Positions 2,672-27,113 of a stretch of 64,000 bases of DNA are shown piece by piece (the stretch's first letter is position 1; each line of letters begins with the position of its first letter). The notes beneath the pieces were generated by a model. The model ran no database searches, was not told where the DNA came from, and saw only the letters and a program-made list of their open reading frames with translations. The stretch is from Promethearchaeota archaeon (GTDB lineage: Archaea > Asgardarchaeota > Heimdallarchaeia > Hodarchaeales > Hodarchaeaceae): assembly GCA_048938105.1 (NCBI GenBank), contig JBHLMN010000025.1, positions 17,723-81,722 of the forward strand, in the 5' to 3' direction. The translations under genes and the position numbers were made by a program.

Positions 2672-4063
2672 ATGAATGACCAAGAAGAAATACTAATACA
2701 AAAAACTAGATGGAATAGTCGCAGGTTTCTCCTTTTGTATTGGTTCGCTTTCGTTTTCGTAGGAACTGCAGCAGCAGCTGGTTTAGGAACTAGTGTTCTA
2801 AATCCTAAAATAAAGATTAACAAAGTCGATCACAGTTCGCTCAACTTACCAAGTGAATGGGGTCCAGAAGACTGCACAGGTTCCATGTGTCATAATGATA
2901 CAGTCGCTTCCTGGAATGAGACAGGCCATTCAAGAGCTGGGACTCTCTTGCCAAATGGCTCATGGCTTGTAGGAGACGATCATATCTACAACGATTCCTT
3001 TTTCCGCTCCTGTTATGGAGGTGATGAAGCATTAATTCAATGCCATACTACTCGATACAACGAAACAGATGGAACCTACTGGACTGGAACCAACGGTGTT
3101 AGCTGTGCGGCGTGTCATGAAGAACCAGGTATGATAGATTATGCAGCTGACAACTGCCAAATCTGTCACGAGTATTCAAATAATAATATAACTGGAGACT
3201 ATCAGATGAGTGCACATAGTAAATCATATGAAGATTTGTTAGCAGGTGGATATGCACCTAGCAGCTGTTTACACTGTATGACTGGTCAAGGGGTATATAT
3301 GGATGTGACAGGTCAAGAAGACATCTTGACTTCGATAAACTGTGGAACTTGTCATGATCCACATGATGCAACTAATGAAGCCCAACTCAGAGAAACCGAG
3401 GTTAATGAACTTTGTGGCACTTGTCACAGTAGTACAGTAGAAGTATTCGAGGATTCCCGCAATAAACACTTGAACTACGTAGATGAAGCTTGTGCTTCAT
3501 GTCATGGATATCAGCTAGACCCTAAACCCTGGAACCCCAATAATGCGAGGATTAACCATTCATGGACGATTAATTTCGAAGATGCCTGTGGACAATGTCA
3601 CACAGGTCAAGTCGACACACGAAAAGACATGTTAAATTATATCCAGGGGAACTTCGAATCTCTGAATGCCACATACTACACCCAACTCGCTAATGTCACT
3701 GCTAAAGTTGATGAAGCAAATGGGACAGCTGGAGTGGATCTGTGCACAATCGAAGATGCGTATGCTCTGATCGAAGAAGCTGAAGAACTGATTTATCCAG
3801 TTGAACATGATGGAAGTTATGGTTTCCATAATCCCACAATGATGGAAGATAATTTTGCACTGGCCCTAGCCAAACTAGATGAGGCATATGTTAAAGCCGA
3901 GACTGCTATTGGTGGTGAACAAACTAGTTCTACAAGCACTACTGGATCTACTAGTTCAATTACAACTTCAGGTGGTACACCTGGATTCGAGTTGTCCACT
4001 ATCTTGGCAGTAATCAGCCTCGTATCAACAGCAACAATCTTATTACACAGAAAGAGACGCTAA
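2672..4063 (+). CDS. Surface-anchored multiheme cytochrome c 1 (9 heme-type sites, NrfA/c552-like C-terminal core)
   Basis: Sites CX4CH, CX9CH, CAACH, CQICH, CLHCM, CGTCH, CGTCH, CASCH, CGQCH; helical domain with DGSYGFHNP; S/T linker, then PGF+TM+RKRR tail. Start MNDQEE chosen by paralog comparison (ORF track starts at 2642). Confidence 0.92.
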   Translation: MNDQEEILIQKTRWNSRRFLLLYWFAFVFVGTAAAAGLGTSVLNPKIKINKVDHSSLNLPSEWGPEDCTGSMCHNDTVASWNETGHSRAGTLLPNGSWLVGDDHIYNDSFFRSCYGGDEALIQCHTTRYNETDGTYWTGTNGVSCAACHEEPGMIDYAADNCQICHEYSNNNITGDYQMSAHSKSYEDLLAGGYAPSSCLHCMTGQGVYMDVTGQEDILTSINCGTCHDPHDATNEAQLRETEVNELCGTCHSSTVEVFEDSRNKHLNYVDEACASCHGYQLDPKPWNPNNARINHSWTINFEDACGQCHTGQVDTRKDMLNYIQGNFESLNATYYTQLANVTAKVDEANGTAGVDLCTIEDAYALIEEAEELIYPVEHDGSYGFHNPTMMEDNFALALAKLDEAYVKAETAIGGEQTSSTSTTGSTSSITTSGGTPGFELSTILAVISLVSTATILLHRKRR

Positions 4064-4097
4064 ACACTTGGTTGGATCCATCTCTAAAATAAAAAAC

Positions 4098-4157
4098 GAT
4101 AACAGCTCATTCGCTGTTATCTTTACCCTTTTTCCAGAAGTGTGGGGAATGAGGAAG
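4098..4157 (+). terminator. Hairpin plus T-tract after cytochrome 1
   Basis: GATAACAGC-tcattc-GCTGTTATC, then a T-rich run; an equivalent element follows cytochrome 2. Confidence 0.6.
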
Positions 4158-4294
4158 GTTTCGTTGTAAAACATGAGTCTATCGAGCTTGCTTGAAGTGT
4201 TTTCCAAGATTTAATTTTTGCTTTTAAAACTGGTACTTTTTCAATAATCCGCTATAAATTACGATTGTCTTGATACCCCTTCAGAAAAACTGAG

Positions 4295-6469
4295 ATGATT
4301 AAATATATGCAAAATAGTTTATCTACACTACTAAAGTGTAATCAAAGGTATCTTTTCTTGCCTTTACTAGTATTACTTATCATAATCCCTTCGATTATGA
4401 TGTTATCTCCGACTAGTAAAAGGTTGGATTTTGTAGAGTCTCAAAAAAATACTTCTAGTATTTCTCCTAAAGTGAGTAACAACGAACAAGACAACAATCC
4501 TGATGCTTATTTTCCAAATTTTCTTTATTATTCAATTTCAGTGGCAAATGCCCTGATTGATTACTTATACGACAATGATTCTGGTGGATTCTTCCGCTCA
4601 GTTAACCAGTTCTGGTCTAATAATTCCATTAATATGTTGAAATATTCTTATGATCAAGCACAAGCTATTCTTGCATTATTAAAACTTTCTGATGCTGTAA
4701 TTAATGATTCTGAACGTGATTTTGCGATTCATTTTGCTGAATTAATCGGTAATTATATGATAACACGTCTTTATGACAATGAAGTTGGAGGATTCTATAC
4801 ATCCACTAGTAGTTCATATAAAAAGCCAGGAGTGAATGGAAAAGTTATTCAGTCTCTCCTCTCCCTATACAAGACCACTGGCAACATTTCTTATAGAGAT
4901 AAAGCAATTGAAACTTTTGAGTTTATAGACAATTTTGGTTGGGATAGTGAAAGTGGTGGTTATGTTTATCTACTGTCTCATAGTGGTCTCATTGCATCAT
5001 CGAATCCCAGTTCAGCCGATCCTTATGATCCTAACTCAAAAAAAGTAGATCATAATGCTATTATGGGGGAAGCCTTACTTGAACTATATCTTTTAACTTC
5101 TGATCCTTCATACATTTCTAAAGCAACAGAACTTTACCAGTTAATCAACACCTCTTCCAGAGACTATACCACTGAATTGTTCTATATTGGATTTAACAAT
5201 GGTGGAATTGTTGAGCCGGATTATACTGACATTTTTATAAATTCCCTGATGCTAGAGTTTCTATCTCAGCTCTACAACATAACTGGGGATTTGACTTACT
5301 TTTATGATTTTCAATCTTTAATAAATGCTGTTCTTTTAAATTTTTGGGACTCTTCCAATGGAGGATTTTTTGCCACATTCCCCTATAATAGTCAAGTTGA
5401 GAAAGACGAGAAGAAATACACAGAGAGGCAATTTTATGCAATTAGAGCTCTTGATGAGGCCTACAAGTTGACAAACAATAACTTATATTATAATCTCATT
5501 CTGGATGTAATGGAATTTCTAAATAATAATCTCTATGATAATGTTCATGAGGGATACTACCTATTAGCAAACGCTGATGGAACAGAAGGAGAACAAAACT
5601 GGAAAGATAAATATTCTGTTACTCAATCCCTAGCTATCTACGAATTAGCCAATCTCTGGCTTTATAGTAAGCCTAGTGTTCTCAATGCTCTCTGGTCCCC
5701 TTTAAATCCACGACCTTCAGATGCTGTTACGATTAGGATTGCAGCGTTTGATGCGGATGGTCTTTCCACCGTATTGTTGAATTATTCTATGAATAACCAA
5801 CCCTACAAGTTAATAGAAATGACCACCAATGAACTAATAGGGAATATGTATGATTTTACCTTTGATTCTCAACCACATGGCACAACAGTGAATTTTAACA
5901 TCATTGTTAATGATACCTTAGGGAATATCGTTGTTCGAGAGTCATATTTCTTTGTTTGGGAGAATGATATTTTACCTCCTCATATTATGTTATTGGGAAT
6001 AAATCCAAGTAACGAGATTTTTGTCAGTTCTAATTTTAGTATAACTGTGAGTGTACATGATAATCCTCCCCAAGGAGATGTCACGAGTGTTCGTATGTAT
6101 TATAAAGAAACGGGTCAATCAAAGTGGGCATCCAGGGCATTATTTCGGTTAGGTGATTATTTGTGGAGGATAGAATTCCCCGATGGTTTCAAAAAACCTA
6201 ATAGATATGAATACTTCTTTGAAGCAATTGATAATCGAGGAAATTTTGGATTTAGTCCTTATTTTTACTTAGAAGTCTATGGCCATCCAAAAAACTTCCC
6301 ATTAACTGCATTTATTGGTGGCCTTTTTTTCATATTATTTATTGTTCCTGCAGGGATTATTGTTTACAAAGAATACAGTAAAAATAGTGCTCGTACAACC
6401 TTAAGAAACATTAAGAAGACACGCAATGTAAAACGGAGGAAAAAGAGAGGGACAAGACGTATAACGTAG
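4295..6469 (+). CDS. Membrane-anchored YyaL/AGE-like (alpha/alpha)6-barrel protein with Ig-like domains, copy 1
   Basis: Repeated (Y/W)DxxxGG(F/Y) units; KYSYDQAQA resembles YyaL KMLYDxAQ; N-terminal TM, two beta-rich domains, C-terminal TM and basic tail. Confidence 0.75.
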   Translation: MIKYMQNSLSTLLKCNQRYLFLPLLVLLIIIPSIMMLSPTSKRLDFVESQKNTSSISPKVSNNEQDNNPDAYFPNFLYYSISVANALIDYLYDNDSGGFFRSVNQFWSNNSINMLKYSYDQAQAILALLKLSDAVINDSERDFAIHFAELIGNYMITRLYDNEVGGFYTSTSSSYKKPGVNGKVIQSLLSLYKTTGNISYRDKAIETFEFIDNFGWDSESGGYVYLLSHSGLIASSNPSSADPYDPNSKKVDHNAIMGEALLELYLLTSDPSYISKATELYQLINTSSRDYTTELFYIGFNNGGIVEPDYTDIFINSLMLEFLSQLYNITGDLTYFYDFQSLINAVLLNFWDSSNGGFFATFPYNSQVEKDEKKYTERQFYAIRALDEAYKLTNNNLYYNLILDVMEFLNNNLYDNVHEGYYLLANADGTEGEQNWKDKYSVTQSLAIYELANLWLYSKPSVLNALWSPLNPRPSDAVTIRIAAFDADGLSTVLLNYSMNNQPYKLIEMTTNELIGNMYDFTFDSQPHGTTVNFNIIVNDTLGNIVVRESYFFVWENDILPPHIMLLGINPSNEIFVSSNFSITVSVHDNPPQGDVTSVRMYYKETGQSKWASRALFRLGDYLWRIEFPDGFKKPNRYEYFFEAIDNRGNFGFSPYFYLEVYGHPKNFPLTAFIGGLFFILFIVPAGIIVYKEYSKNSARTTLRNIKKTRNVKRRKKRGTRRIT

Positions 6470-8700
6470 TGAATGGAGAAATTACAATGATTTATATTGA
6501 TTTTGGAGCTTTTGGGATGGATTTAGGTATGTTGATATTGCTTTTTAGCCTAGTAGCCCTTTTGATTGATGTCTTTTTAGTGATTTATGGTGGATACATT
6601 GAAAAATGGGAAATTTATTCAGAAATAAGCCTTTCTGCTGGTATTCTGGCTATTATCATCTCTTTCCTATATTTTAGTTATTCAGTTATAACAGCTGATT
6701 ATCACTTCACCTATGTGAGTGATCATATTAACAATGATATGGACTTTTTCTTAAGACTATCAGCCATTTGGTCTGGACAGTCTGGATCTTATTTCTTTTG
6801 GACATTTCTAGTTGTAATGGTTTATTCAATCTTCAGGCTGATGTTCAAAGAGTACGCGCATGAGACAATCTTTTGGCGAGCGTTTGTCTTATCAGCTCTT
6901 CAAACATCTGTTTTGGTGGCCTTAACACTGCTAAGTGATCCGTTTAAAATAAATGATGGTGTTTTTTCCGATGGTATTGGATTAAATCCATTATTAATGA
7001 CGTATTGGAATCTCATACATCCTCCAATTGTTTTCATTGGTTATGCTCTATGTTTAATTCCAATGGTCATTGGAATAACAAGAATCTCTATTCTTAAAAA
7101 TGGTGAGTTGCCAGAATTTGAAGGTAAAGAAAAATTAGATAATTTCTTTGAATTTTTAGTTTCATTTGCATGGCTTATATTAAGCCTTGGAATAATAATT
7201 GGTGCTTATTGGGCTTATATGACTCTCGGTTGGGGTGGTTTCTGGGCATGGGATCCCGTAGAAACAGCTTCGTTGATACCCTGGCTTTTTATAACCCTTT
7301 ATTTCCATGGAAAACCTTTTTTTGGCAAAACTAAATACCTAGAAAATTACATTATTAGCATGAGTTACATTGGTGCTTTGTTTACTACATATTTAACAAG
7401 AAGTAATATAATTTCAAGTGTACACGCATTTCAATCCGAAGCAACTTTAGAAAATATTCTAAAGATTTTTATCCCAGAAAATAGTTTTTTTATGTCCATT
7501 ATATTGCGATTCATTCCTGATGAGAAGATGTTATTACTTTTTATTGTCATAATAAGCACTTTTCTTATCCCACATTATTTTGGAATTAGGAGTAAGGATA
7601 TAACAAGGATTCCAATCTATTTTGAAAGAAAAGATTTTCAAGGATCAAGATCTCATATAACTGCCTTAAAAATCTCCTTTATTTCAGGTCTTATAGGTTC
7701 TTATATTATCATCATAGGTTTGATAACCCCTACTATTTATGATATTGTTGGATATATAATCACTTTCAGTCCAGAGGGAGTTGGTTCAAGCATTGTTGTA
7801 GACCAATTGTATTTTAATACAGTTATAACGATTTTTGGAGGTATAATGTTACTTGCGCAGTTTTTCTGTACTTTTTATCCGAGATTGGATGTTAAGAAGA
7901 AGTTTATGTTAATGATAGGAGGATTAACAGCAGGAATCACATTTTCAATAGGAGGTTTCTTATATCGAAGTGGTTTTCTTAATCAGATTCTTGGAGACAA
8001 AAACCTAATACTTCTCTTATTCAATAACTTCTGGACAACTAGTGACAAAGCAAACTTAGTAATTCCTCTTCTATTTCTGGGAGTGGTTGGATTGCTAGTA
8101 GAGTTTTTAAAAGTGGCTTTTAAAGAAGAAAAGAATGTTATCCGAAAAACATCGCAAATACTGTTACATCTTTCTTTCTTAGTAATTCTCCTTGGTGCAT
8201 TAATGAGTGCAAATATGACTGTTTCTAGTCAAATTTTGGGTCAAGAAGGAGGTGAATATAAAATTCCAGGAACTTCTGTAACAATTATTATTATAGATTT
8301 AGATAGAAGATTTCCTGAATCAGGTTTCAATCGAGTCGAATATGATACACAATTCATGTTGTCATCAGATGCACGAATCATTGCATTTGGAATCAGTAGA
8401 CTCGCTTATGATAAGATAAACCGAATGGATCATGAGGTGACAATAATTAACGATCTCTTTTCTAACATTTACATCGTAACTAGTGGGGTTTTTGAAAACC
8501 CCATTTCTGGAATTTTTGAGGCTGCTTCCCTCCAGATTAAAGTTATACCATATATTAACATTTTGTGGGTAGGATGTCTTCTCCTCCTTTTTGCTATCCT
8601 CCCCTTGACCATAGGGAGATTTATTATCCTGAAAAAGACCTTATCTTTTAGAGAAATAGAACAGAAAGATGTTAAAACGAAAATAGTGCCAATTAAATGA
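6469..8700 (+). CDS. ccmF: Cytochrome c heme lyase CcmF, copy 1
   Basis: WSGQSGS, HPP, WGGFWAWDPVETASL (WWD motif), SVHAF; true start may be ATG 6487 (MIYI, as in the paralog). Confidence 0.93.
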   Translation: MNGEITMIYIDFGAFGMDLGMLILLFSLVALLIDVFLVIYGGYIEKWEIYSEISLSAGILAIIISFLYFSYSVITADYHFTYVSDHINNDMDFFLRLSAIWSGQSGSYFFWTFLVVMVYSIFRLMFKEYAHETIFWRAFVLSALQTSVLVALTLLSDPFKINDGVFSDGIGLNPLLMTYWNLIHPPIVFIGYALCLIPMVIGITRISILKNGELPEFEGKEKLDNFFEFLVSFAWLILSLGIIIGAYWAYMTLGWGGFWAWDPVETASLIPWLFITLYFHGKPFFGKTKYLENYIISMSYIGALFTTYLTRSNIISSVHAFQSEATLENILKIFIPENSFFMSIILRFIPDEKMLLLFIVIISTFLIPHYFGIRSKDITRIPIYFERKDFQGSRSHITALKISFISGLIGSYIIIIGLITPTIYDIVGYIITFSPEGVGSSIVVDQLYFNTVITIFGGIMLLAQFFCTFYPRLDVKKKFMLMIGGLTAGITFSIGGFLYRSGFLNQILGDKNLILLLFNNFWTTSDKANLVIPLLFLGVVGLLVEFLKVAFKEEKNVIRKTSQILLHLSFLVILLGALMSANMTVSSQILGQEGGEYKIPGTSVTIIIIDLDRRFPESGFNRVEYDTQFMLSSDARIIAFGISRLAYDKINRMDHEVTIINDLFSNIYIVTSGVFENPISGIFEAASLQIKVIPYINILWVGCLLLLFAILPLTIGRFIILKKTLSFREIEQKDVKTKIVPIK

Positions 8701-9104
8701 GAGTACATGAAATGATTAGATCTAAAAACCTTATGTTCGCTATAATTATAATGTTTGTAAGTGTAAGTGCATTATTGTTTCTATTAAGTAGTTCCAGTGT
8801 TCCAGTTTTTTCCGTAAAAGAACTTAAAAGCCATTCCCAACCCAGTTCTTTCTTAAATCATAATATTCAAGTGGTAGGTGTCGTTCAGGATATAAATAGT
8901 ACTGGTTTTTTTATAACAGATCCAGAGGATGTAACAAATTCATCCTTGATTATATACATTAATGCGACTAATGTAGAAAAGCCTGTAGGTTTTGAATCTG
9001 GAAAAACTATTCTCGTTGAAGGAAAACTCATTTCAACAACAGGTATGTGGAAGCTAAAAGCGTCAATGATTAGCACTAAGTGTCCATCTAAGTACACAGA
9101 GTGA
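8697..9104 (+). CDS. ccmE: Heme chaperone CcmE, CxxxY (System I*) type, copy 1
   Basis: N-terminal TM, OB-fold-like body, terminal KCPSKY. Confidence 0.92.
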   Translation: MRVHEMIRSKNLMFAIIIMFVSVSALLFLLSSSSVPVFSVKELKSHSQPSSFLNHNIQVVGVVQDINSTGFFITDPEDVTNSSLIIYINATNVEKPVGFESGKTILVEGKLISTTGMWKLKASMISTKCPSKYTE

Positions 9105-9153
9105 GATCTTTTCTTATCAAGAAATATAGAGTAAAGTGTTAAAGTGAGTATAA

Positions 9154-9642
9154 ATGAACATCCAATCAAAGAAAGTAAATGATGAAAGTCTTGAATGGAG
9201 TGGAGAGTTTAAGCAATTCTTAAAGGAATGGTTCTCTGGGTTAATAGCTGGAATTGAAAGATTGAATGATAGTACTTGGCCTATGATTTTAGAGTTAACG
9301 GGTCGTGCTTGTGCACGAATCCATTCTAATGCATTATTTTGGGAGATTTGGGAACTTACCCGTAACCTTGATGATTTCATTGAAAAAGTTAATGAAATAT
9401 ATAAAGAAAAAGTCTTTGAGATTATTGACAAGGATACTATCTCTGTATGTTATTCTAAATGTAATTGCCCATTAGTCGAACATGGTTTAGTAGACTCACC
9501 TCTCCTGTGTAATTGTTCCCCAAACTGGTTAGCAGAGAATTTTGAATCAATTCTTAAAAAATCAGTAATAATAACCACTAAAAATACGATTTTAAGAGGA
9601 GCAAAGAGTTGTAATTTTATTATTTCTATTGAAAGCGAATAA
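9154..9642 (+). CDS. Cys-motif V4R-like small protein (DUF6144-like)
   Basis: GRACA, KCNCP, CNCS, TILRGAKSCNF pattern. Confidence 0.65.
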   Translation: MNIQSKKVNDESLEWSGEFKQFLKEWFSGLIAGIERLNDSTWPMILELTGRACARIHSNALFWEIWELTRNLDDFIEKVNEIYKEKVFEIIDKDTISVCYSKCNCPLVEHGLVDSPLLCNCSPNWLAENFESILKKSVIITTKNTILRGAKSCNFIISIESE

Positions 9643-9965
9643 GGGTATATTAGAATACAGTTATTTTGATTATTTCAATTTGTTTTATCATTCTGAATTA
9701 TTTTTTGGTTTAAAAAAATCCTCACATAGTTTTACTATATATGGGCATCTGATTATCTATAAGGTTTTACTGATTTTTCAATCAATTCAACAACAATGAA
9801 AACAACTCTACATGATATAGTCTGTCTAGCAAACGCATTATCTCTTCTGAGAATGACAAAACTGATATACATCAAATAAACTAGATAACTCTATGTTTAA
9901 GGTTAGCTTCGTTAATTCTGATAACAATAATTCTGCTGATCTTCCTTAGTGAAGCCAAATATAAT

Positions 9966-10151
9966 TCATTTCATCTTGTTTCTTAATTCTTCCAAGTTAT
10001 TATTTGCCATAATCAGTTCTTGAAGAGCTATTTCAGAAAATTCATCATTCAATCCGTTATTAGGGTAGCATTTGAAAAAAAAGTTACAAATATTACAATT
10101 TGGGAAGAAATCACGACAAATCTTTTCTCTATCGGTCTTTCCATTTTTCAT
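9966..10151 (-). CDS. Small Cys-rich protein (Cx6CxxCx5C plus coiled tail)
   Basis: 61-aa ORF with AGGAG upstream and four clustered Cys. Confidence 0.5.
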   Translation of the reverse strand: MKNGKTDREKICRDFFPNCNICNFFFKCYPNNGLNDEFSEIALQELIMANNNLEELRNKMK

Positions 10152-10418
10152 TTTTTCACTTCTCCTTAATACTTATTTACTTAACAACAATTATGTTGTA
10201 GTTATGTTATATTTTTTATATTTATAACATTTTTTATTTTTAAAATTTTTTTTGTGTTTTAATTATTTTATTCATTCTATTAATGAATGGTATATTTCTG
10301 AAGAAATAAACTAAATAACAATAAGACAATTTAGAAATGGGTGCTTGAAAACTTAAATTGAATTTTTCCCTTCTATCCCAACGTATAGCACAATTAGCAG
10401 AAAAAAGAAAAAGAATTT

Positions 10419-10607
10419 TCTGAAGATATGATTAGCAAATCTTTGGTTATTTTTATCAATGTAAATAATGTTAACATACTTACAGGATTTGAATCTGGAA
10501 AAACTGTACTGGTAGAAGGAAAACTCATCTCAACATTTTATACATAGTTCCTTAAAGCTACAATGATTAATACCTAATGTCTGTTTAAAAATAAAAATGA
10601 ATTATGA
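10419..10607 (+). pseudogene. ccmE: Decayed third ccmE (3' half)
   Basis: Translates to SLVIFINVNNVNILTGFESGKTVLVEGKLISTFYT*FLKATMINT*CLFKNK, colinear with both intact CcmEs; two in-frame stops; CPSKY lost. Confidence 0.85.
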
Positions 10608-10693
10608 GGAACTAGTCTTGATAACTAATAAATTTCAATGAAACCTAAACTGGATTTTTTTATCATAGTAATTTGTATTGCCATCCTGAACTA

Positions 10694-10993: not shown

Positions 10994-11073
10994 TTCTCAT
11001 CTATTAATTAATATATTACTGATTGGTAATTCAAACCTTTGTTGAAATAATTTAATTCTATGATAAATCCTTG

Positions 11074-12027
11074 TTATGGGAGAAAAGAAGTAATGACCAC
11101 TCCCACAAATAACCAGAGAAATGCAAATGCCATAAAAATTGATGCCAGTTTGAAGATCTTAAATGTCCTTTCATGAGATGGTTTTCTAAGATTAGTAAAT
11201 GCTTGAAAAAGGATGAATAAACAAAAAAGAATTAAAGGGAGAAGAGCGAGAAGATTAATTTCTAGACTGATCCCAGCTAGAACAATGATTGAAGCACTAA
11301 GAATAGCTGATAATGTTACAACACGAATTGTTTGGGTTTGACTACTGACTACAGGCCACATGGGGACACCGGCATTCTTATATCCCTCTAGGTTCTTGGG
11401 GATAAGAGCTAGAGTAAGAATATGCAAAGGAATCCAACAGAGAACAAAAAGCCCCATCAATATTGCAGTCAGATCAATTATTCCAATCACTGCAGCTCGC
11501 CCCGCAACAGCTGGGAGTCCTCCTGCAACACCCCCAAAAATTATAGATAACCGTGTTCGTCGTTTTAACAAAAGTGAATAAACAACAACATCAAAAAAAA
11601 ACCCTAAGAAGACAACAACCATTGTAAGAAAATTAACAAATATTCCCACCACCAGAGTACCTGCAGCTGTGAAGAGAATTCCGTGTTTTAACACAGTCGA
11701 AGGAGGAACTCTTCGACTGGGTAAAGGACGATCTCTTGTTCTTTCCATAAGTGCATCAATATTACGATCTACGTACATATTAAGCAATGTGGAGCCAGAA
11801 ATTGCAAAAAAAAGCCCAACAACAAACCAAATGAATGACAATAGGTTGAAGCTTGCGCCCCAAGCGGTTATTAGATGAGCAAAAATTGCAGTATATAGAA
11901 GAAGAAATGTTTGTTTGCTTTTGATAAGTTCCCCGTATGTAGAAAGAGAAAGAGGGGGGTATGAATATTTTACCAATTCTTCATGTTCCAGTTGTTGTTG
12001 GGGAATTTCCATTTCATCCATCAACAA
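11074..12027 (-). CDS. cyoE: Protoheme IX farnesyltransferase (heme O synthase, CyoE/CtaB)
   Basis: NMYVDRNIDALMERTRDRPLPS, YSLLLKRRT, GGVAGGLP, WIPLH, YKNAGVPM. Confidence 0.93.
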   Translation of the reverse strand: MLMDEMEIPQQQLEHEELVKYSYPPLSLSTYGELIKSKQTFLLLYTAIFAHLITAWGASFNLLSFIWFVVGLFFAISGSTLLNMYVDRNIDALMERTRDRPLPSRRVPPSTVLKHGILFTAAGTLVVGIFVNFLTMVVVFLGFFFDVVVYSLLLKRRTRLSIIFGGVAGGLPAVAGRAAVIGIIDLTAILMGLFVLCWIPLHILTLALIPKNLEGYKNAGVPMWPVVSSQTQTIRVVTLSAILSASIIVLAGISLEINLLALLPLILFCLFILFQAFTNLRKPSHERTFKIFKLASIFMAFAFLWLFVGVVITSFLP

Positions 12028-12059
12028 GCCATTCCATAATTACTCAATTGAATAGGGTA

Positions 12060-13643
12060 TTATTCTGGGAACTCCTTAACATCTTTTCTTCCTTTGAGAA
12101 TCTGGATGAGCTGATGGAAACAAAAGATGGTAATTGCAATGACAAAAAGCATTATTCCAAAATCAATTATAAGATTAATTAAAGATAGATTGGGTAGTAA
12201 AGGCATATTGTGAAGCCAGTAATCCAGTACATCATCGTATTTATCTAATTCTGCCGCCCAAGTCTGATCAAAGTGGGGAAAATACATATAGATCGCTGTA
12301 GGAAGAAATGCCATGATGCTACCAGCAAAAGACAGCCAACCCATTGCTATTCGTGGCTTACCTTGAATATCTAATATGTCAATGAAGAAAAGGAGGAGGA
12401 GGATCGCTGATAACACAGCTAAAACGTGCCAATGACCACGGGCAACCGTATCTTCGATAGCTACAGGGCCCGATCGAAATGATACCATACCTGTTACCCT
12501 CGTCAAAATTGAATCATCGCGAAGACTAAGCGCAAGGAATATACCTGTAAAAGTCATTACGAAATTTACCCATATGAATAAGAAATATAACGTAAGTTTC
12601 ACAGGATCTTTGAACACAGCTTTTGCACGAGTAAGCCAGGATGCAGATCCATAAGAATCACCAAGGATTTCCTTACTCGTTTTATTCCAACCAGTTAATG
12701 CCAATATTAAACCAACAGTTACGAGAATTGCTGAGCCTGCATAAATTAGATAATGAATATCAACATCAGCGAATGAATGAATCCACTCGGAGATTGTAAC
12801 AAGCCAACATCCTATTGACATGATGATAAATCCTGGAATAGCAAGTAACATTGAAATAAGATACCACTTCCCCTTTTGATCTGGAACAGTGTACCGATAT
12901 ACAACTAGTAAGATAATCACATCGATAAGTCCCAACATTATATGTAAATGACCCTTAATCCCATCAACAAATATAACTGGGTAAGTAATATAGTCATATT
13001 CTCTAAGAAAATATTCTGCTTGTAATACTGTCAATCCATTACCGAAGAAAGCTCCTATTGACGCTCCGAGTACAACACTTGCTAAGATACAGATAGTAAG
13101 TAGTGCTAATGCAAGTTGTGCGACAAAAATATTCCTACCTGTATCTGGATCTCGTCTTGGGAAGGTCCTGGTTGGGAAAACACCGATAAGTAACATGATA
13201 CCCGCATAGAAACAAAGAGACATCCCTACCAAGAACAGACCATGTAATATCCACGCCTCTGGAAGAATATACGCAAAAATCAGTGCATTCGCAGAAGCTA
13301 AAATACTCCCAATAAATAAAGGCCATTTCACGCGCGATCTAAACTTCTCCCGAACATCCATGAATTCCAGAACAAAATATGTACATACAGCAATGAATGG
13401 AACCGAGATTGCATGATAAACCATAATTATACGGCCCGCTTTTTCAACTGGATCGGGGTCTAATGTCATCCAAGGCTCTACATTTAAGAGTCCCGTTATT
13501 GGTTCAGAAAAGGTCGATAAAAAGAGAACAATACAGAACTCCCAAACAATCGTAAAAGTTATCATTCCTTTATAGGTCAGACCATAATTGATTTTGTACT
13601 TTAACCAGGGAATAATTCCTTCTTCTTTTACTTCAGTCGTCAT
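12060..13643 (-). CDS. Polytopic membrane protein with intramembrane His motifs (putative heme-binding), upstream of cyoE
   Basis: About 12 hydrophobic segments; VYHA, ILHG, GHLH, DIHY, GHWH. Confidence 0.7.
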   Translation of the reverse strand: MTTEVKEEGIIPWLKYKINYGLTYKGMITFTIVWEFCIVLFLSTFSEPITGLLNVEPWMTLDPDPVEKAGRIIMVYHAISVPFIAVCTYFVLEFMDVREKFRSRVKWPLFIGSILASANALIFAYILPEAWILHGLFLVGMSLCFYAGIMLLIGVFPTRTFPRRDPDTGRNIFVAQLALALLTICILASVVLGASIGAFFGNGLTVLQAEYFLREYDYITYPVIFVDGIKGHLHIMLGLIDVIILLVVYRYTVPDQKGKWYLISMLLAIPGFIIMSIGCWLVTISEWIHSFADVDIHYLIYAGSAILVTVGLILALTGWNKTSKEILGDSYGSASWLTRAKAVFKDPVKLTLYFLFIWVNFVMTFTGIFLALSLRDDSILTRVTGMVSFRSGPVAIEDTVARGHWHVLAVLSAILLLLFFIDILDIQGKPRIAMGWLSFAGSIMAFLPTAIYMYFPHFDQTWAAELDKYDDVLDYWLHNMPLLPNLSLINLIIDFGIMLFVIAITIFCFHQLIQILKGRKDVKEFPE

Positions 13644-13827
13644 ATAATAACCTCTTGAGTAATATCTCTTATTATGGTTTTTTGATGGTTTTTTGACATT
13701 TTATCAATTCTTCATAAGAAATATTTATGATTTAATTTCAACTACTTTAGTAAGTTAAGACTGAGATTTCGATATTTTTATTCAATCTTCTGACAATAAG
13801 TAAGTTTTCTATGGTTTTTCTAATTTG

Positions 13828-13851
13828 GTGAGAAAAAAGTAATCTGATAAC
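13828..13851 (-). promoter_or_regulatory. 24-bp shared operator, copy A
   Basis: Minus strand GTTATCAGATTACTTTTTTCTCAC; matches copies at 16455, 16633 and 18408. Confidence 0.7.
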
Positions 13852-13961
13852 TTCCATTCCCAATGATTGGAAAAAAAAAATAAGGTAGAAAAGACATATT
13901 TTCTACTGGATTGTAATTATTTACCTTCAATGTGTTTGAACGTCAATTACTAGGAATTTAT

Positions 13962-14627
13962 TTAGAAAGGGATTTCTGCTTTCCATTTACTGGGTAACAG
14001 AATTCCTAGAACGAAGAAGACTCCAACAATTACTAATAAGAGAGGTAACACATCAAAAATTTGTTGTTCAGTTAAAAATGGATTTTCCAATGCAACAAAG
14101 GCAAGCAATACTCCACCAAATGAAATTAGTAATCCACCAATTGAGAAGAGAATACTTGTCATTTCCGTTTTTTTAGTGAAGGCGGTATAAAGTGGAATAC
14201 CAACAATTGAAAGACCACTGGGGATATGGAGGCCCATTAATACAGGTGAGGAAAAGGCATCAAGACCAGAAATGAGCTCAAGTCGGACAACTGCCAAAAC
14301 TAGTACCATTACAACTGTAAAAATAGTGTAAAATAATCCGTAAGGTTTGTCCTTCCAAACAGCAAAGAATAGTCCAATTGCTAAACAAGCAGGTATAAAA
14401 GCTGCAACTACTGGCACTAAGGGTTCCTTAAGGATGATAAAACCGTTCAATATAATCAAAACTCCCGATACAAACAGAACAAGGAAGCTAATGGCCCATG
14501 CTATATGATAGACTTTCTTATTCTTTAAGTAATTTAAAATAAGCAAGATTGCCATAACTAGTGCCACAACACCAGTCACCAATAATAGTAGTATTGGTAT
14601 TAGGTTCGTTGATATATCATCTAACAT
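13962..14627 (-). CDS. About 7-TM membrane protein of unknown function
   Basis: Hydrophobic throughout; His in YHIAW and GLHIP. Confidence 0.75.
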   Translation of the reverse strand: MLDDISTNLIPILLLLVTGVVALVMAILLILNYLKNKKVYHIAWAISFLVLFVSGVLIILNGFIILKEPLVPVVAAFIPACLAIGLFFAVWKDKPYGLFYTIFTVVMVLVLAVVRLELISGLDAFSSPVLMGLHIPSGLSIVGIPLYTAFTKKTEMTSILFSIGGLLISFGGVLLAFVALENPFLTEQQIFDVLPLLLVIVGVFFVLGILLPSKWKAEIPF

Positions 14628-14733
14628 CTTTAAACCTCAAATAACAATTGTTAAATCTGCAGAATAGTAGTAGGTGGCAAAAATATTAGGATTTGCTAAA
14701 CGAAAGCTCATGGATTAATAGTTCAGATAGTAC

Positions 14734-14757
14734 ATAACAAAAAAATAACCTAATTAT
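14734..14757 (-). promoter_or_regulatory. Degenerate copy of the 24-bp operator
   Basis: Minus strand ATAATTAGGTTATTTTTTTGTTAT, between the 7-TM gene and the HxlR gene. Confidence 0.4.
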
Positions 14758-14903
14758 TTTTGAGGTAAAAAAATATATACTTGAATTAGGAGTAGCTAAT
14801 AGTTATTATGAAAAATTATTCAATATAATTAATGAATAATTCCCTATTATTAAGAACTGGTTTTTTTCTTAAACCTAAGTTTAATTAAGAAGGTAAATAT
14901 ACG

Positions 14904-15374
14904 ATGAATAATTACTCAGAAGATGAATGCTCTGCTATGGTCGCTATCAAGATTCTTGGACGGAAGTGGATTCCTTGGATTGTGTGTGAACTCTTATCAG
15001 CGGGAGAACTATTCTTTTCTGACCTCCTAGACAGAATTGAAGGAACTTATGGGGAAAAAATATCCGCAAGAGTCTTATCGGAGTCTTTGTCCAGGTTAGA
15101 AGAGATGAACTTATTAGAACGTACGGTAGTTAGCGAAACAATGCCCATTAGAGTGAGATACTCCTTGACTCCTAAAGGAACAGATCTTCAGGTAGTTTTT
15201 GCGGTTTTAAAGGGGTGGGGAATAAAATGGGGAGACATTCGTCAGAAAAGATGTCGTTCATTCAGTTGTATTCATAATTGTGTTCCAATGATTGATATTG
15301 ATAAAGCAGCAGGTTTGTTGGAACTAAGAGATCCAGAATCACCCCCTCTGAATAAGATTGAGGATTCTTCTTAG
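14904..15374 (+). CDS. HxlR/DUF24-family winged-helix regulator with N-terminal Cys and C-terminal CxxxxCxxxC
   Basis: EC...ILGRKW, FSDL, ISARVLSESL, PIRVRYSLTPKG..L. Confidence 0.9.
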   Translation: MNNYSEDECSAMVAIKILGRKWIPWIVCELLSAGELFFSDLLDRIEGTYGEKISARVLSESLSRLEEMNLLERTVVSETMPIRVRYSLTPKGTDLQVVFAVLKGWGIKWGDIRQKRCRSFSCIHNCVPMIDIDKAAGLLELRDPESPPLNKIEDSS

Positions 15375-15560
15375 CTTGTCGTTCTAGCGTTTTTTATTAG
15401 GATTGATCAAAAAGAACTCCATATCGAAGGGTTTATTGTTAAAAAACGAGGGTACTTCATTCGTGAGATGATTAGGTAATAAAAAAAGAGTGGAAGAAAA
15501 CCTACCAAGTTGTTTTCTTCGGATGTTGTCAGGCTTAGTCTCAAGAAAATAATTTCTTAA

Positions 15561-16295
15561 TTAGGTTTTCAAAGGTACTGGTTTAGGAGAATAGATTACA
15601 TTTAACAATCGTCCAGCAATTTGTGTAATCATCCCAAGTAAGAAACACAACATTCCACCAAAGAACTGAAGTGTGCCTGAGGATAAGAGATAACCATATC
15701 TATCTACACCAATATTTACCCCATCAATTATGTGTGTTGGCATAATTAAAGGTTGAACCATCATTACAATCCCTAAACCAAATAACACAAAAGCAAAGTT
15801 TGCAACTTGAGATCCAACGCTTCCTCCAGAAGAAGAAGCAGGTTCTTCTATATGTACCTTAATTTCTTGCTTAAACTTTGGTAATAATAGTAAGATCAAT
15901 ATGATCAAATTCAGGATCGCTGAAATCCAAGAAGGGGTGAAAAGTAAACCTGTCCGTGGTGTAGAAAAAAAGCCAATTGACATTAATATAGCAGGAATAC
16001 CTCTCCCTATAATTCCTGTAATACTGGCAATAAGGGCTGCTGGATAGAACCACGTTTTTCTAGCCCAATATGCCCAGATAAGAACTCCCCACGCAAGCGC
16101 TGAGAACCAGGTCACAAAGTAAGTGATAAACCAGATTTCTGAATAGTCTCCTGCAATTGCGAATGGCCCCTTTTGCCAAAATGGATCAAGTGATACGCAC
16201 GTACTTCCAATGGCACTAACAACTCCAACAGCTGCTGCCGCACCTATTAAGAATTCCATTTTATGTTGAGTTATTGCTTTTAATATACTACTCAA
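15561..16295 (-). CDS. Membrane protein of unknown function
   Basis: About 6 TM helices. Confidence 0.75.
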   Translation of the reverse strand: MSSILKAITQHKMEFLIGAAAAVGVVSAIGSTCVSLDPFWQKGPFAIAGDYSEIWFITYFVTWFSALAWGVLIWAYWARKTWFYPAALIASITGIIGRGIPAILMSIGFFSTPRTGLLFTPSWISAILNLIILILLLLPKFKQEIKVHIEEPASSSGGSVGSQVANFAFVLFGLGIVMMVQPLIMPTHIIDGVNIGVDRYGYLLSSGTLQFFGGMLCFLLGMITQIAGRLLNVIYSPKPVPLKT

Positions 16296-16454
16296 GTTCC
16301 TAACCTTCTTTTTTCTGATTAAATTTCTGCATTAATTTTTAGGATGTACAAGGCTTGAAATTTCAACTAATCATTTGATTGACTATCAAAAATTCAGTTC
16401 TTGGTTCCTTCCAATGTTGCGAATAAGAGCATTTGGTAAGATTTGAATAATATA

Positions 16455-16478
16455 GTGAGAAGAAAGTAACCTGATTAC
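16455..16478 (-). promoter_or_regulatory. 24-bp shared operator, copy B
   Basis: Minus strand GTAATCAGGTTACTTTCTTCTCAC. Confidence 0.7.
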
Positions 16479-16632
16479 TTAGTAAGGGAAAAAACCAGAA
16501 TAAAAATCATCCTAAAAATATACTACAAAAAGCTTTGAAATTAAGATGTTAATTACTTCCCGAGAATTACAGCGCTATCCCACACGATTTATTAAATTCA
16601 CAATTACACTAAGCCTATAAACAACCTTGCAT

Positions 16633-16656
16633 GTTATCGGGTTACTTTCTGTTTAC
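16633..16656 (+). promoter_or_regulatory. 24-bp shared operator, copy C
   Basis: GTTATCGGGTTACTTTCTGTTTAC followed by TTGATTATTGAAAACTTAGAAAA. Confidence 0.7.
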
Positions 16657-16808
16657 TTGATTATTGAAAACTTAGAAAACACTTCTTATTGAAGGAGGGT
16701 GCCTTTTAATAGAGCCCCCTGAAATTTCAATGATCATTCTGATGATTGATTGATATTTCAAAGAGAATTGGGGCTTAATGGCATTAATAAACATGAGGAG
16801 ATAAGGAT

Positions 16809-18185
16809 TTGAATGGAAAGCCGAAACATACCATGCTTTTAACCTCAGTGATTGCTATATTTTTCTTGATCGGAGGAGTATTTGTTATTAAAACTTCTGT
16901 TCATTTTTTCCCGATAGATAGCTCAATTGATTCGAATTTAATTAGCAATGAAGCGAATAAAGTTATTCCTCAGAATTACACCAGACGGGAGGTTATGAAT
17001 GTTCAACAAGACGCGTGTTGTGGTCATACTGATACAACTCCTCCTACAATACAAATCAATTCGCCTGCTAATAATTCCTTTGTACTTGGAGGTACAATTA
17101 TTGATCTAAAAATTTTTGATGATAATCCGTTTTATGATTACGAAGCAAAACAAGTCCTTTATCGTTGGGGAACAGACCAAAGTAATACAACCCTTGACTC
17201 TCCTCATAATGTGGTTATATCAAATGATATTGGAACATATGTTTTGTATGTCTATGCAGAGGATAATGATGATAATTGGGGTTCAGCTATATTCAGTTTT
17301 ACAGTTACATTAACTTACAATCCACCGACTATAGAAATAATTTTCCCCAGCACTAGTAATCAAACTCTTACAGGAATGAAGTTATTCAGTGCCAATGTGA
17401 ATGATGATAATGGAATTCTCGACGTAAAAATACAAATCGATGTAGTGGTGGATGGTGTTAGGTATCCTGGTCGTACTTACCCTATGTATTATAACGAGAC
17501 ATCTAGTTATTATGACATGAATTTCAATGTTTCATCGCTGACTAATGGCTACCATTGGCTTGTAACAATCGCTACAGATCTTGATGGGGAACAGCACATA
17601 GTTACTAAAGAAATTGATTTTACAGTTATTGGTGGGATAGGAGTAATTGTGGGGGGTGATCCACCTGAATGGGATCAAATCCAATCAGTTCTTCCCAAAA
17701 ATGTTAGTAAATATATCGAAGAAGATAAATTCTCAGATTACGAGGCAGAAGTTGGTGATGTTTACTTTAAGCTGGTTGTATCTGATGAAGTGGGAATTGC
17801 AGCAGTTGATCTCACAGTTTACGCGTTGGATGATTTTGATAATAGTACTGGTGAGTTTGAGCTTGGTGATGCTCGGATAGAATTATCTGAATCTCTAAGT
17901 CAAATTGGAACCAATGGAAACTGGCTTATATATGAATATACATGGGATAGCACATCTTCTTTGGATAATTATTATCTATGTAAATTTGAAATCCAAGATG
18001 AGGATACGATAACGAATCGCTTAATAATCAGCATAGTTCTTGAGATAGACAACGTTGTTGATGATCAACCAACCGTTGACTTTGGTTCACCAGGGTTTGA
18101 GGTAGAAATACTAATTCTCGCTCTGTCAAGTTTGGTTCTCTTAGCTGTCCTTATCAACCGTAATCATACTCACAAGAATGACTAG
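16809..18185 (+). CDS. Secreted acidic Ig-like-repeat surface protein with PGF-type C-terminal anchor
   Basis: Signal/TM segment; D(T/N)xPPxI-type Ig repeats; SPGF+TM tail; ACCGH near the N-terminus. Confidence 0.8.
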   Translation: MNGKPKHTMLLTSVIAIFFLIGGVFVIKTSVHFFPIDSSIDSNLISNEANKVIPQNYTRREVMNVQQDACCGHTDTTPPTIQINSPANNSFVLGGTIIDLKIFDDNPFYDYEAKQVLYRWGTDQSNTTLDSPHNVVISNDIGTYVLYVYAEDNDDNWGSAIFSFTVTLTYNPPTIEIIFPSTSNQTLTGMKLFSANVNDDNGILDVKIQIDVVVDGVRYPGRTYPMYYNETSSYYDMNFNVSSLTNGYHWLVTIATDLDGEQHIVTKEIDFTVIGGIGVIVGGDPPEWDQIQSVLPKNVSKYIEEDKFSDYEAEVGDVYFKLVVSDEVGIAAVDLTVYALDDFDNSTGEFELGDARIELSESLSQIGTNGNWLIYEYTWDSTSSLDNYYLCKFEIQDEDTITNRLIISIVLEIDNVVDDQPTVDFGSPGFEVEILILALSSLVLLAVLINRNHTHKND

Positions 18186-18407
18186 AGAACTAGACTCCAA
18201 TCATCTCATCTTTCCCCAAGATTGCTATTTGTTTATTTTGTGATTCAAATTTTCTCATTTTTATTTCCAGAATTATTATTAAAATAATCATGTTCAAAGG
18301 TGTAGAAGACAACCAAACCTACTCTGACTTAGAATTCCATAGGTTCTCTGCTATTATACCTCAACACAGGGTACTCTAATGATGATAATTTCGAGTATTT
18401 TTTACAT

Positions 18408-18431
18408 GTAATCAGGTTACTTTCTACTTAC
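18408..18431 (+). promoter_or_regulatory. 24-bp shared operator, copy D (cytochrome 2 promoter)
   Basis: GTAATCAGGTTACTTTCTACTTAC followed by TTGATTATTGAAACCTTAGAAAA. Confidence 0.7.
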
Positions 18432-18615
18432 TTGATTATTGAAACCTTAGAAAATCTTCTAAAAGTCGTAGGATGTTCTTTATCAGACTTGAAATTTCCT
18501 TAATCTTTCTTATGATTAATCGAAATTTCAAACAGAGCCTATTCTCAAAAATTTAAATCAAAACAGAAATTTGCAGTAACTTTAAATGAAATCCAAAAAA
18601 AATGGCGGAATTTTA

Positions 18616-20178
18616 ATGAATGACCAAGAAGAGATCTTAGTACGCCAAAGTAAGTGGAACGGTCGCAGAGTTGTATTGCTCTACTGGTTTGCTATTGTCT
18701 TCATTGGAACAGCAACAGCTGCTGGTGTTGGAGCTGGTGTTTTAAATCCAAAATACCAGTTTAAAGTGGAACAATACACCCATGACGATAAATTCGGCGA
18801 TGGAACTATCTGGCATCCCGAAGAATGTGCTACTTGCCATCCAGCGGAATACGAAGGTTGGAACCAAACTCTCCACTCTTATCTTTTCGCTGAGTATAAT
18901 GAATCTTATTTGATTCATTATAGCGGTACTTACCAGAACACAACCGCATTCCTGGAAAGTAAAGGCTGTTGCCATGTAACAAATTGGTACAATGATACTT
19001 CTGTTGACCCTTCAGGTGAACTTAAAGTTTGGGATTATGGAGTGACTTGTGCAGCTTGTCACGAGGATCCGGATAATGGATTTGATCCCGTGGGTTATAT
19101 GCCATTCGGTCCAGCATCCTACCCCTGTGGTGGTTATGGTATGAAGGGTATGCCACTATGTCATATCCCCCGTGGTGTTTCTCAGTTTGATATGATTGGT
19201 CCTCACTCCCAAGCGCTCGATGATTTGCTTGCTAGTGACGATATAGACGATTCTTGTCTCCATTGTATGACTGGAAATGGTCTTGTCTATGGTTATGGCC
19301 CAGGTGAAAACAAAAGCTATGAGTACGGAGAACTTATCGGTATCGAGTGTTATGTATGCCACAATCCTATGGGTGTTTCCAATGAACTGTATAAAGAGGA
19401 TAAATATCCTAATCTTACTCTTAATTCTACACTGAGAGCAAATAGTATTCCTGAACTTTGTGGAGAATGTCACAGCGGAGATTACGACTCATCTTATGCA
19501 ATGATAACAGATACTACTGTTCAAGGTCCCCATTCAAACTTCGATTGCACACAATGTCATGGATATTACTTAGATCCTGCAACTGAGTCGCAAAATGCTT
19601 CTTTTGAGCTCAATCATACATGGACACTCAAACTTCCTGATGCGTGTGCTACTTGCCATCTTCCTACGGGTACAAACATGAGTGCTCTCAATGCCACAAT
19701 AATGGCAACTACTATGGAATCTAGGATGGAGCTCCTTGAGGGCATCCAAGAAGATATTGCAGCATTAGTAGATACAGTTGAAACTGAGATAACAGCCACC
19801 ACCACCAAAGCAGACGAAGCTGCAGCAGTTTCAGGTGCTGATGAGGATGAAATCGCTGAAATTTACCTCTTGATTGAAGAAGCTAAAGCCTTGGTCGAGT
19901 TTGTTGAAGCCGATCCAGCAGGTGGATTCCACAATCCTGATCTCACGGAAGTAAAACTACAGTTGGCATTGACTAAGTTATCTTGGGCGAAAACAGCTGC
20001 AGAAGCTATAATCACTCCCCCAGGTACCACCACTGAAGAACCGTTAACAGTAACCAAAACCACACATGCAACTGAAACTATAACTGAAACCACAACTGCA
20101 GCAGCAACAGCTATTGGTATCTTAGCAGTACTCAGTATCCTCAGTGCAACCGTTCTTTTCCAGAAAAAAAGGCGTTAA
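18616..20178 (+). CDS. Surface-anchored multiheme cytochrome c 2 (paralog of 2672..4063)
   Basis: Sites CATCH, GCCH, CAACH, CX10CH, CLHCM, CYVCH, CGECH, CTQCH, CATCH; DPAGGFHNP; Thr-rich linker, TM, KKRR (ORF track start 18586). Confidence 0.92.
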   Translation: MNDQEEILVRQSKWNGRRVVLLYWFAIVFIGTATAAGVGAGVLNPKYQFKVEQYTHDDKFGDGTIWHPEECATCHPAEYEGWNQTLHSYLFAEYNESYLIHYSGTYQNTTAFLESKGCCHVTNWYNDTSVDPSGELKVWDYGVTCAACHEDPDNGFDPVGYMPFGPASYPCGGYGMKGMPLCHIPRGVSQFDMIGPHSQALDDLLASDDIDDSCLHCMTGNGLVYGYGPGENKSYEYGELIGIECYVCHNPMGVSNELYKEDKYPNLTLNSTLRANSIPELCGECHSGDYDSSYAMITDTTVQGPHSNFDCTQCHGYYLDPATESQNASFELNHTWTLKLPDACATCHLPTGTNMSALNATIMATTMESRMELLEGIQEDIAALVDTVETEITATTTKADEAAAVSGADEDEIAEIYLLIEEAKALVEFVEADPAGGFHNPDLTEVKLQLALTKLSWAKTAAEAIITPPGTTTEEPLTVTKTTHATETITETTTAAATAIGILAVLSILSATVLFQKKRR

Positions 20179-26125: not shown

Positions 26126-26157
26126 AGCTGGCTGGAAATTAAGAGGTGATGATTATC

Positions 26158-26313: not shown

Positions 26314-26389
26314 AACACCATAATAAGCAGAATAACAAAGATCTTCGCTGATTGTATGGAAATGGATAAATTAAACAGAGTGTGCTAAG

Positions 26390-27100: not shown

Positions 27101-27113
27101 ACCTTGGGGATGA

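Follow-up and report, generated by a model that had tools for sequence, protein, structure and literature searches.

In an Asgard archaeon, two paralogous surface-type cytochromes with nine haem sites apiece carry the pentapeptide CLHCM at a site where the related cytochrome OcwA of Thermincola has a conventional CxxCH motif. Both are encoded in a 64,000-nucleotide stretch (hereafter the window) of contig JBHLMN010000025.1 from a Promethearchaeota archaeon of the order Hodarchaeales, whose genome is 5.85 Mb in size, 35% G+C and 99% complete. The sequence of the motif, the homology of the proteins, the equivalence of the site, its conservation and covariation and the surrounding gene cassette are established by the observations set out below. 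We put at roughly 55% the probability that CxHCM is a genuine haem c site with methionine as the proximal ligand and an open distal side, located at the end of a surface haem wire, and that a His or Lys directly before the second cysteine (position x2) is required together with the Met.

Two diverged paralogs share CLHCM at the fifth of nine haem sites

The features of the two cytochromes are as follows.

2672-4063, plus strand: multihaem cytochrome 1, 463 residues from ATG 2672; the reading frame opens with GTG at 2642
2873-3169, plus strand: sites 1-4 of cytochrome 1, namely CTGSMCH (CX4CH) at 2873-2893, CX9CH at 3011-3046, CAACH at 3104-3118 and CQICH at 3155-3169
3266-3280, plus strand: CLHCM, site 5 of cytochrome 1, residues 209-213 of P0001; aligns with CLKCH of OcwA haem 5
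3341-3601, plus strand: sites 6-9 of cytochrome 1, namely CGTCH, CGTCH, CASCH and CGQCH; align with OcwA haems 6-9 and NrfA haems 2-5
18616-20178, plus strand: multihaem cytochrome 2, 520 residues from ATG 18616; paralog of cytochrome 1
19255-19269, plus strand: CLHCM, site 5 of cytochrome 2, residues 224-228 of P0002

The motif is encoded by TGT TTA CAC TGT ATG inside the open reading frame (ORF) 2642-4063 and by TGT CTC CAT TGT ATG inside ORF 18586-20178, so that the Leu and His codons differ between the two copies, and the proteins around it are 38% identical. Four haem sites precede CLHCM and exactly four CxxCH motifs follow it in each protein. Sites 1-4 of cytochrome 2 are CATCH, CCH, CAACH and CX10CH (18826-19164), its sites 6-9 are CYVCH, CGECH, CTQCH and CATCH, and in both proteins the last CxxCH is followed by three long C-terminal helices with the peptide GFHNP. 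A first-pass annotation, made from the DNA alone, had described the two synonymous CLHCM copies, the divergence of the paralogs around them, the four trailing CxxCH motifs with their GFHNP-bearing helical domain and the total of nine sites, and it is upheld on all of these points. It had also dismissed sequencing error, and the homologues bear this out. The motif codons are identical, with zero differences, in contigs from two public runs of a single study; this is weak support because the best-matching run may be the window's own assembly sample. CxHCM is, moreover, kept in dozens of homologues from independent assemblies, and the motif is therefore neither an error nor a chance occurrence. 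The database protein P0003 (463 residues) is identical to cytochrome 1.

The true starts are likely ATG 2672 and ATG 18616, because each is preceded by a GGCGG box and agrees with the starts of the homologues, which begin MNDQEE. In an AlphaFold2 (AF2) model with a pLDDT (predicted local distance difference test) of 71, CLHCM is predicted to lie in a short helix (residues 207-214), as do the CxxCH motifs.

We also note that the paralogs differ in cysteine spacing at site 1 (CX4CH versus CATCH), site 2 (CX9CH versus CCH) and site 4 (CQICH versus CX10CH). Across the family, site 2 takes the forms CxxCH, CxHCM, CxxCK, xCCH, xCCM, CX3CH and CX9CH, with the second Cys alone invariant.

CLHCM occupies the position of OcwA haem 5

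A family profile was built from 58 members and compared with a structure database. Its best match is OcwA of Thermincola (6I5B, E 1e-35), aligned over the full length with sites 1-9 matched, followed by MccA, OmhA, NrfA and ONR. Foldseek with the AF2 model also ranks OcwA first, and VIA-align places the model on OcwA with Z 18.0 (310 residues, 3.9 Å), followed by OmhA (Z 15.2), ONR (Z 14.4-14.6), NrfA (Z 13.6-14.1, covering model residues ~158-428 only), MccA (Z 12.1) and HAO (Z about 10). Structure prediction and comparison with NrfA and ONR had been proposed in the first-pass annotation; those folds do match (Z 13.6-14.6), with OcwA scoring higher. The kinship with NrfA and ONR that it had claimed therefore stands at the level of the superfamily: both proteins belong, with nine sites each, to the NrfA/ONR/OcwA superfamily, and their nearest relatives are OcwA and OmhA (6QVM, an undecahaem relative of OcwA), not NrfA or ONR.

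The profile places C-l-H-C-m on C-L-K-C-H of OcwA haem 5 and site 2 on CAGCH of OcwA haem 2, with the flanking motifs in register. C209, C212 and M213 are thus a Cys pair and a potential iron ligand aligned to a proven haem site, and methionine is able to ligate haem iron. A residue-level alignment of CLHCM with the CxxCK motif of NrfA was sought, but local alignments end just past the motif, so that the equivalence rests on OcwA and on the published superposition of OcwA haems 5-9 on NrfA haems 1-5 (PMC6703420). By this alignment CLHCM sits structurally at the catalytic-haem position of NrfA, and the earlier assignment of the motif to the reactive-haem column of an NrfA-like core is confirmed. 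The claim that Met replaces the Lys of CxxCK is not: since OcwA uses CxxCH at this haem, the ancestral state of site 5 is an OcwA-like CxxCH, and the residue replaced is His.

The resemblance to OcwA of Thermincola potens, a nonahaem terminal reductase located on the cell surface, extends to the whole protein. Both have nine haem sites in the same order, with a c554-like N-terminal four-haem part and an NrfA-like five-haem part with a three-helix bundle, and both come from organisms that have no outer membrane, the surface location of the archaeal proteins being predicted from sequence. The two odd sites here, 2 and 5, correspond to haems 2 and 5 of OcwA, which are five-coordinate, high-spin and at opposite ends of the chain (PMC6703420; see also PMC9250108). 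The differences lie in the motifs and anchors: where OcwA has CxxCH at haems 2 and 5, the window proteins have CX9CH or CCH at site 2 (replaced by CxHCM in relatives) and CxHCM at site 5; the distal HH motifs of OcwA are missing from both window proteins, though found in relatives; and the window proteins are archaeal, with a transmembrane (TM) segment and a sorting-tail anchor and many N-glycosylation sequons.

NrfA and ONR (TvNiR) share the C-terminal five-haem core with its helical bundle, four CxxCH motifs after the reactive-haem site and an odd motif at catalytic haem 1 with a residue other than His after the second Cys. That residue is Lys in NrfA and Met here, however, and there are nine sites here against five or eight. 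The distal-His stretch of NrfA appears to be missing, no nrf partner genes lie nearby, and while CxxCK requires an extra lyase (NrfEFG or a CcsBA variant), this genome has only general CcmF copies. The octahaem sulfite reductase MccA (4RKM) falls in the clade of OcwA and has its active site at haem 2, the equivalent of site 2 here; it lacks the site-5 haem, and its CX15CH haem with a lyase of its own and its Cys-bound copper have no counterpart seen in the window proteins.

C-x-[H/K]-C-M is conserved and Met covaries with His or Lys at x2

We searched 1.84 billion cluster representatives, pooled the best 150 of about 16,000 superfamily matches with an earlier set and aligned them to the profile. 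Among the proteins of this pool with CxxC-X in the site-5 column, the residue after the second Cys is His in 135, Met in 67, Val in 6, Lys in 4 and another residue in 6, so that haem-iron-ligating residues make up about 94%. Within a 56-sequence Asgard family the column reads Cys (50/56), His at x2 (46/56), Cys (50/56) and Met (44/56), and C-x-H-C-M is present at site 5 in 54 of 103 single-module homologues, a count that the first-pass annotation had proposed. It had also named a motif that was unaligned or unconserved as grounds for abandoning its reading; CLHCM is both conserved and aligned to the reactive-haem column. The motif itself, given there as CxxCM, needed extension: its full form is C-x-[H/K]-C-M, and it occurs at site 2 of relatives as well.

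The closest homologues are encoded in metagenome-assembled genomes named Hodarchaeales, Hermodarchaeota, Heimdallarchaeota, Thorarchaeota, Odinarchaeota and Sifarchaeia, and the cytochrome was found in 32 of 250 sampled Asgard genomes. A FastTree tree of the 103 single-module proteins places site-5 CxHCM in a large Asgard clade and also in P0087/91, P0093/98, P0059 and P0122/190, which requires at least five changes between His and Met. At site 2, CxHCM is found in many relatives (CGHCM, CAHCM, CSHCM), with CxxCH in the outgroups. A few homologues have CxxCK at Met-type columns (P0040 with CFMCK at site 2, P0086 with CLHCK at site 5, P0120, P0124 and P0189).

The motif is also repeated within giant archaeal cytochromes of 1.3-1.8 thousand residues, which consist of a three-haem module of ~95 residues in 7-9 tandem copies. 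The module reads TYCA[H/K]CMSP[F/Y] ... CxxCHxxH ... CGxCH-GSHH ... SAH, and one repeat of a giant cytochrome has CARCH in the Met column.

L004:10001-20941 and L005:10001-15235: giant multihaem cytochromes (1729-1786 residues), adjoining a long CcmF and haem-synthesis genes (NirD/L-like, radical SAM)

The haem-synthesis genes on these contigs are of the archaeal type.

The identity of x2 follows that of position 5. In matched domains with Met at position 5, x2 is His (75) or Lys (8) and nothing else, and in those with His at position 5, x2 is His in 1 of 150. For the single-module proteins, x2 is His in 54/54 with Met versus 0/27 with His. The link is looser at site 2, where CAGCM, CAACM and xCCM are also found.

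Met is the sole conserved ligand candidate at site 5 of the window proteins

Seven His residues outside the motifs are conserved (H64, H96, H192, H241, one before site 8, H306 and H396) and match the seven canonical CxxCH haems, which leaves no spare His for sites 2 and 5. By analogy, this absence fits the five-coordinate state of haems 2 and 5 in OcwA. The distal, non-bonding His of OcwA haem 5 is H381 (PMC9250108). Many relatives have RH or HH after site 7, aligned to OcwA H381, and both window proteins are without it; only 21-27 residues separate their sites 7 and 8, without a His matching H381, and no residue-level alignment with NrfA was obtained for this stretch, which in NrfA is the KxQH region between haems 3 and 4 with the distal catalytic His/Tyr/Arg and the Ca site. 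Judged from sequence, this leaves site 5 of the window proteins with Met as its one conserved candidate ligand.

These are, together with the complete System I beside the genes, the grounds on which we favor a Met-ligated haem; the presence of haem, its ligation by Met, the coordination number, the surface location of the proteins and their physiological role are inferred. The two proteins would be paralogous OcwA-type nonahaem cytochromes tethered at the surface through a TM helix at the N-terminus and a sorting tail at the C-terminus. Both Cys of CxHCM would form thioethers to the haem, and the Met sulfur would substitute for the proximal His of CxxCH or Lys of CxxCK. With every conserved His already accounted for, the distal side would be open or occupied by solvent. 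The x2 residue, His or Lys, may stand in as a nitrogen ligand while the archaeal cytochrome c maturation system (Ccm, System I; CcmF and a Cys-type CcmE) attaches the haem, or it may be a second-sphere residue. A thioether ligand at the chain terminus, at the positions of OcwA haems 2 and 5, might retune the potential or the reactivity toward extracellular or soluble redox partners.

Several points weigh against this. The AF2 model of the cytochrome is haem-free and of moderate confidence, and a five-coordinate Met-ligated haem has, to our knowledge, little precedent. Position 5 is V, Q or L in some family members, residues that are unable to ligate iron, and one subclade (P0041, 43, 47, 48, 51, 54) is without both Cys at site 5, which is therefore dispensable in some lineages. 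Because x2 is strictly His or Lys wherever Met is present, it could be x2 and not Met that matters functionally. Phylogenetically independent contrasts for Met and x2-His are concordant in 4/4 cases with p 0.125, as four pairs cannot reach significance. There is no separate lyase gene in the genome, and CXXCM, CXXCK and CXXCR variants are not matured by the Ccm system of E. coli (Allen et al. 2005, cited in PMC4158909).

The alternative that survives best, though we regard it as unlikely, is that haem is covalently attached at CxHCM and Met is not the iron ligand. The iron would then be bound by the x2 His or Lys of a rearranged loop or, in relatives, by a distal RH/HH His, or that face would carry no ligand from the protein, a situation known from haem ci of cytochrome b6f. 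In favor of this, a Met at position 5 is always accompanied at x2 by His or Lys, which are the known proximal ligands of CxxCH and CxxCK. The lineages with V, Q or L at position 5 retain both Cys and mostly carry HH after site 7, and 5 of the 6 sequences with an OcwA-like HH there are among them (P0039, P0045, P0078, P0053, P0056). However, in CxxCH turn geometry the x2 side chain is directed away from its own haem, and OcwA itself (CLKCH) pairs a Lys at x2 with a normal proximal His, so that x2 need not ligate its own haem. The window proteins are without the RH/HH His, which leaves Met as their sole conserved candidate, and Met is the residue of 44/56 family members.

Somewhat less probable again is that CxHCM is no haem site at all and forms a disulfide, a small metal site (Cys, His and Met being copper-type ligands) or a decaying relic, in which case the proteins would be seven- or eight-haem wires. 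The loss of both Cys and Met together in one subclade would agree with this, as would the rejection of CXXCM by E. coli Ccm reported through PMC4158909. In the NrfA/OcwA arrangement this haem is a side branch or terminus, which a wire could dispense with (PMC6703420), and the relative MccA has a Cys-bound copper at its active site (PMC9250108). Against it, the motif is kept over deep divergence and arose, with His at x2, at several positions of the tree, at a second site and in the repeat modules; the column switches among H, M and K, all haem ligands; Lys for His at x2 would make a poor copper site; and a relic would not converge on a single five-residue pattern.

Finally, the NCBI pipeline names several homologues as ammonia-forming nitrite reductases, but it is very improbable that the window proteins are genuine NrfA/ONR orthologues of this kind: Pfam Cytochrom_C552 (PF02335) does match at 31.8 and 29.5 bits against a cut-off of 24.1, in the C-terminal half only (profile positions 243-405 of 438), the ONR/NrfA structural matches are good and OcwA reduces nitrite and hydroxylamine in vitro (PMC6703420), but the column is CLHCM in both proteins, with no CxxCK and with Lys in only 4 homologues of the best 150 and the earlier set, the NCBIfam matches (E <= 0.01) include no NrfA model, the stretch between sites 7 and 8 is shortened and appears to lack the distal catalytic His that NrfA and OcwA carry there, the window has no NrfH or NrfBCD genes, and the closest relatives are the OcwA/OmhA surface cytochromes.

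Each cytochrome heads a cassette with its own CcmF and CcmE

The genes that follow the two cytochromes are listed here.

4295-6469, plus strand: six-hairpin protein 1, (alpha/alpha)6, GlcNAc-2-epimerase/GH76-like, with Ig-like domains, a signal anchor and a C-terminal TM segment with a basic tail; the protein has 724 or 745 residues in the two copies
6469-8700, plus strand: CcmF/NrfE-family haem lyase 1, with the WWD domain WGGFWAWDPVE
8697-9104, plus strand: CcmE-like haem chaperone 1, ending CPSKY (archaeal CxxxY)
20420-22657, plus strand: six-hairpin partner 2, 54% identical to copy 1
22660-24921, plus strand: CcmF haem lyase 2, 67% identical to copy 1
24836-25312, plus strand: CcmE 2, CPSKY; its ORF opens with TTG and the true start is probably an internal ATG
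25445-27803, plus strand: CcmC (25445-26125), CcmA (26390-27100) and CcmB (27114-27803), the remainder of the genome's only System I

Both copies run in the order cytochrome, six-hairpin protein, CcmF and CcmE, and the second continues with CcmC, CcmA and CcmB. A genome inventory found three PF01578 genes (two CcmF and one CcmC) and one CcmE above threshold, all inside the window, and the two cytochromes are the genome's only ORFs with at least three CxxCH. By analogy with NrfEFG we considered an extra, dedicated lyase for CxxCM and rejected it: this is the only Ccm system in the genome and there are no other multihaem substrates, so that what is seen is the general Ccm system duplicated with its substrate. 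As in the archaeal System I (CcmABCEF with a CxxxY CcmE), there is a CPSKY CcmE and a WWD-domain CcmF, and CcmA, CcmB and CcmC are present. What sets the present system apart is its tight linkage to the substrate and to a six-hairpin surface protein, the duplication of CcmF and of CcmE, with each copy set beside a cytochrome paralog of its own, and the need to handle sites of the CxxCM, CCH and CXnCH types.

The order cytochrome, six-hairpin protein and CcmF recurs in the homologous loci L001, L002, L003 and L008 and partly in L007. Among the 32 cytochrome-positive Asgard genomes, 31 have a strong six-hairpin match, mostly on the same contig and then followed by a long CcmF. In families f3 and f13 of the phylum, which have a shorter CcmF, no sampled genome has the cytochrome, and there is one weak six-hairpin match (9e-11, residues 79-229 only). 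A role of the six-hairpin protein as a maturation factor specific to CxxCM was considered and is not supported: its fold class is generic, and it does not neighbor the CxHCM cytochromes of L004, L005, L009 and L010. Because of its absence there, we regard it as a partner of this cytochrome family and not as a general requirement of the motif. In L003:14211-18880, a relative that has lost both site-5 Cys (P0047) is accompanied by two tandem CcmF genes after the six-hairpin gene.

Predicted surface location and electron transfer

Both cytochromes have an N-terminal TM segment behind a short conserved cytoplasmic peptide, a Ser/Thr-rich linker and a PGF...RKRR tail, which resembles the NCBI Heimdall-CTERM model at 18.4 bits, under its cut-off of 24. 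They contain 10 and 11 NxS/T N-glycosylation sequons. From the TM anchor, the linker, the sorting-like tail and the sequons, both are predicted to reside on the cell surface. Relatives in L007 and L009 adjoin NrfC/NrfD-type membrane modules, which suggests a quinol-linked route for electrons. The anchors, the kinship with OcwA and these NrfCD-type neighbors of relatives point to a cell-surface electron-transfer protein rather than to a sulfur or metal enzyme.

The N-terminal sequence MNDQEEIL.RQSKW.GRR before the TM helix (2672-2750 and 18616-18700) is conserved throughout the family, as signal peptides usually are not. This suggests that the anchor is retained and contacts a partner; the RR in the sequence recalls the twin-arginine motif.

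Relation to known haem c motifs

The natural haem c motifs known to us have His (CxxCH, CXnCH, A/FxxCH) or, in NrfA, Lys after the second Cys. If the Met site is real, it is a further kind of motif and brings new coordination chemistry to the reactive haem of the NrfA/OcwA superfamily. A full-text literature search for a CXXCM-type motif in several spellings found only an engineered CXXCM variant, and a search on Asgard multihaem cytochromes, Hodarchaeales included, found nothing on these proteins; a conserved CxHCM haem motif is apparently undescribed. We tentatively propose that C-x-[His/Lys]-Cys-Met is a new class of natural haem c motif with a thioether proximal ligand. An archaeal System I tolerant of a non-His site would install it, perhaps with the internal His or Lys as a temporary ligand. 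In several Asgard lineages the motif would mark the reactive end-haems of the sole c-type cytochromes present, and it would be multiplied in the giant archaeal cytochromes. As E. coli Ccm is described in PMC4158909 as rejecting CXXCM, maturation by a single archaeal CcmF and CcmE becomes a biochemical question, for which the His/Lys covariation provides a testable handle.

A preprint on a cultured Hodarchaeales strain reports a domain search in which no cytochrome c was found in Heimdallarchaeia (10.1101/2025.02.26.640444). The surface multihaem cytochromes with their own Ccm in 32/250 Asgard genomes indicate that some lineages make c-type cytochromes and may exchange electrons with the outside.

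Other genes in the window

Two further ORFs were considered as cytochromes and set aside. The 244-residue ORF at 15561-16295 showed no similarity to the cytochrome b of L001, and the 302-residue ORF at 54948-55856, which has two CxxCH, is a NiFe-hydrogenase small subunit in which these motifs are Fe-S ligands. This DNA occurs in public sediment and mangrove samples, and no RNA dataset carrying the window stretch is listed among the public runs.

A pair of genes on the minus strand at 11074-13643 encodes a haem O synthase (TIGR01473 at 215 bits, cut-off 210) and a 527-residue protein for which no Pfam, NCBIfam or PDB match was found. The same pair also lies near the cytochrome cassette in L002 and L003. 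Directly after ccmB and on the opposite strand, an FTR1-type iron permease is followed by a DUF1858-DUF438-hemerythrin-PAS protein (27832-30909), and both may have a part in supplying iron or haem or in sensing redox state. The minus strand at 49631-55856 carries an MvhADG/HdrABC-like cluster with NiFe-hydrogenase large and small subunits, an HdrA-MvhD fusion and HdrC- and HdrB-like proteins.

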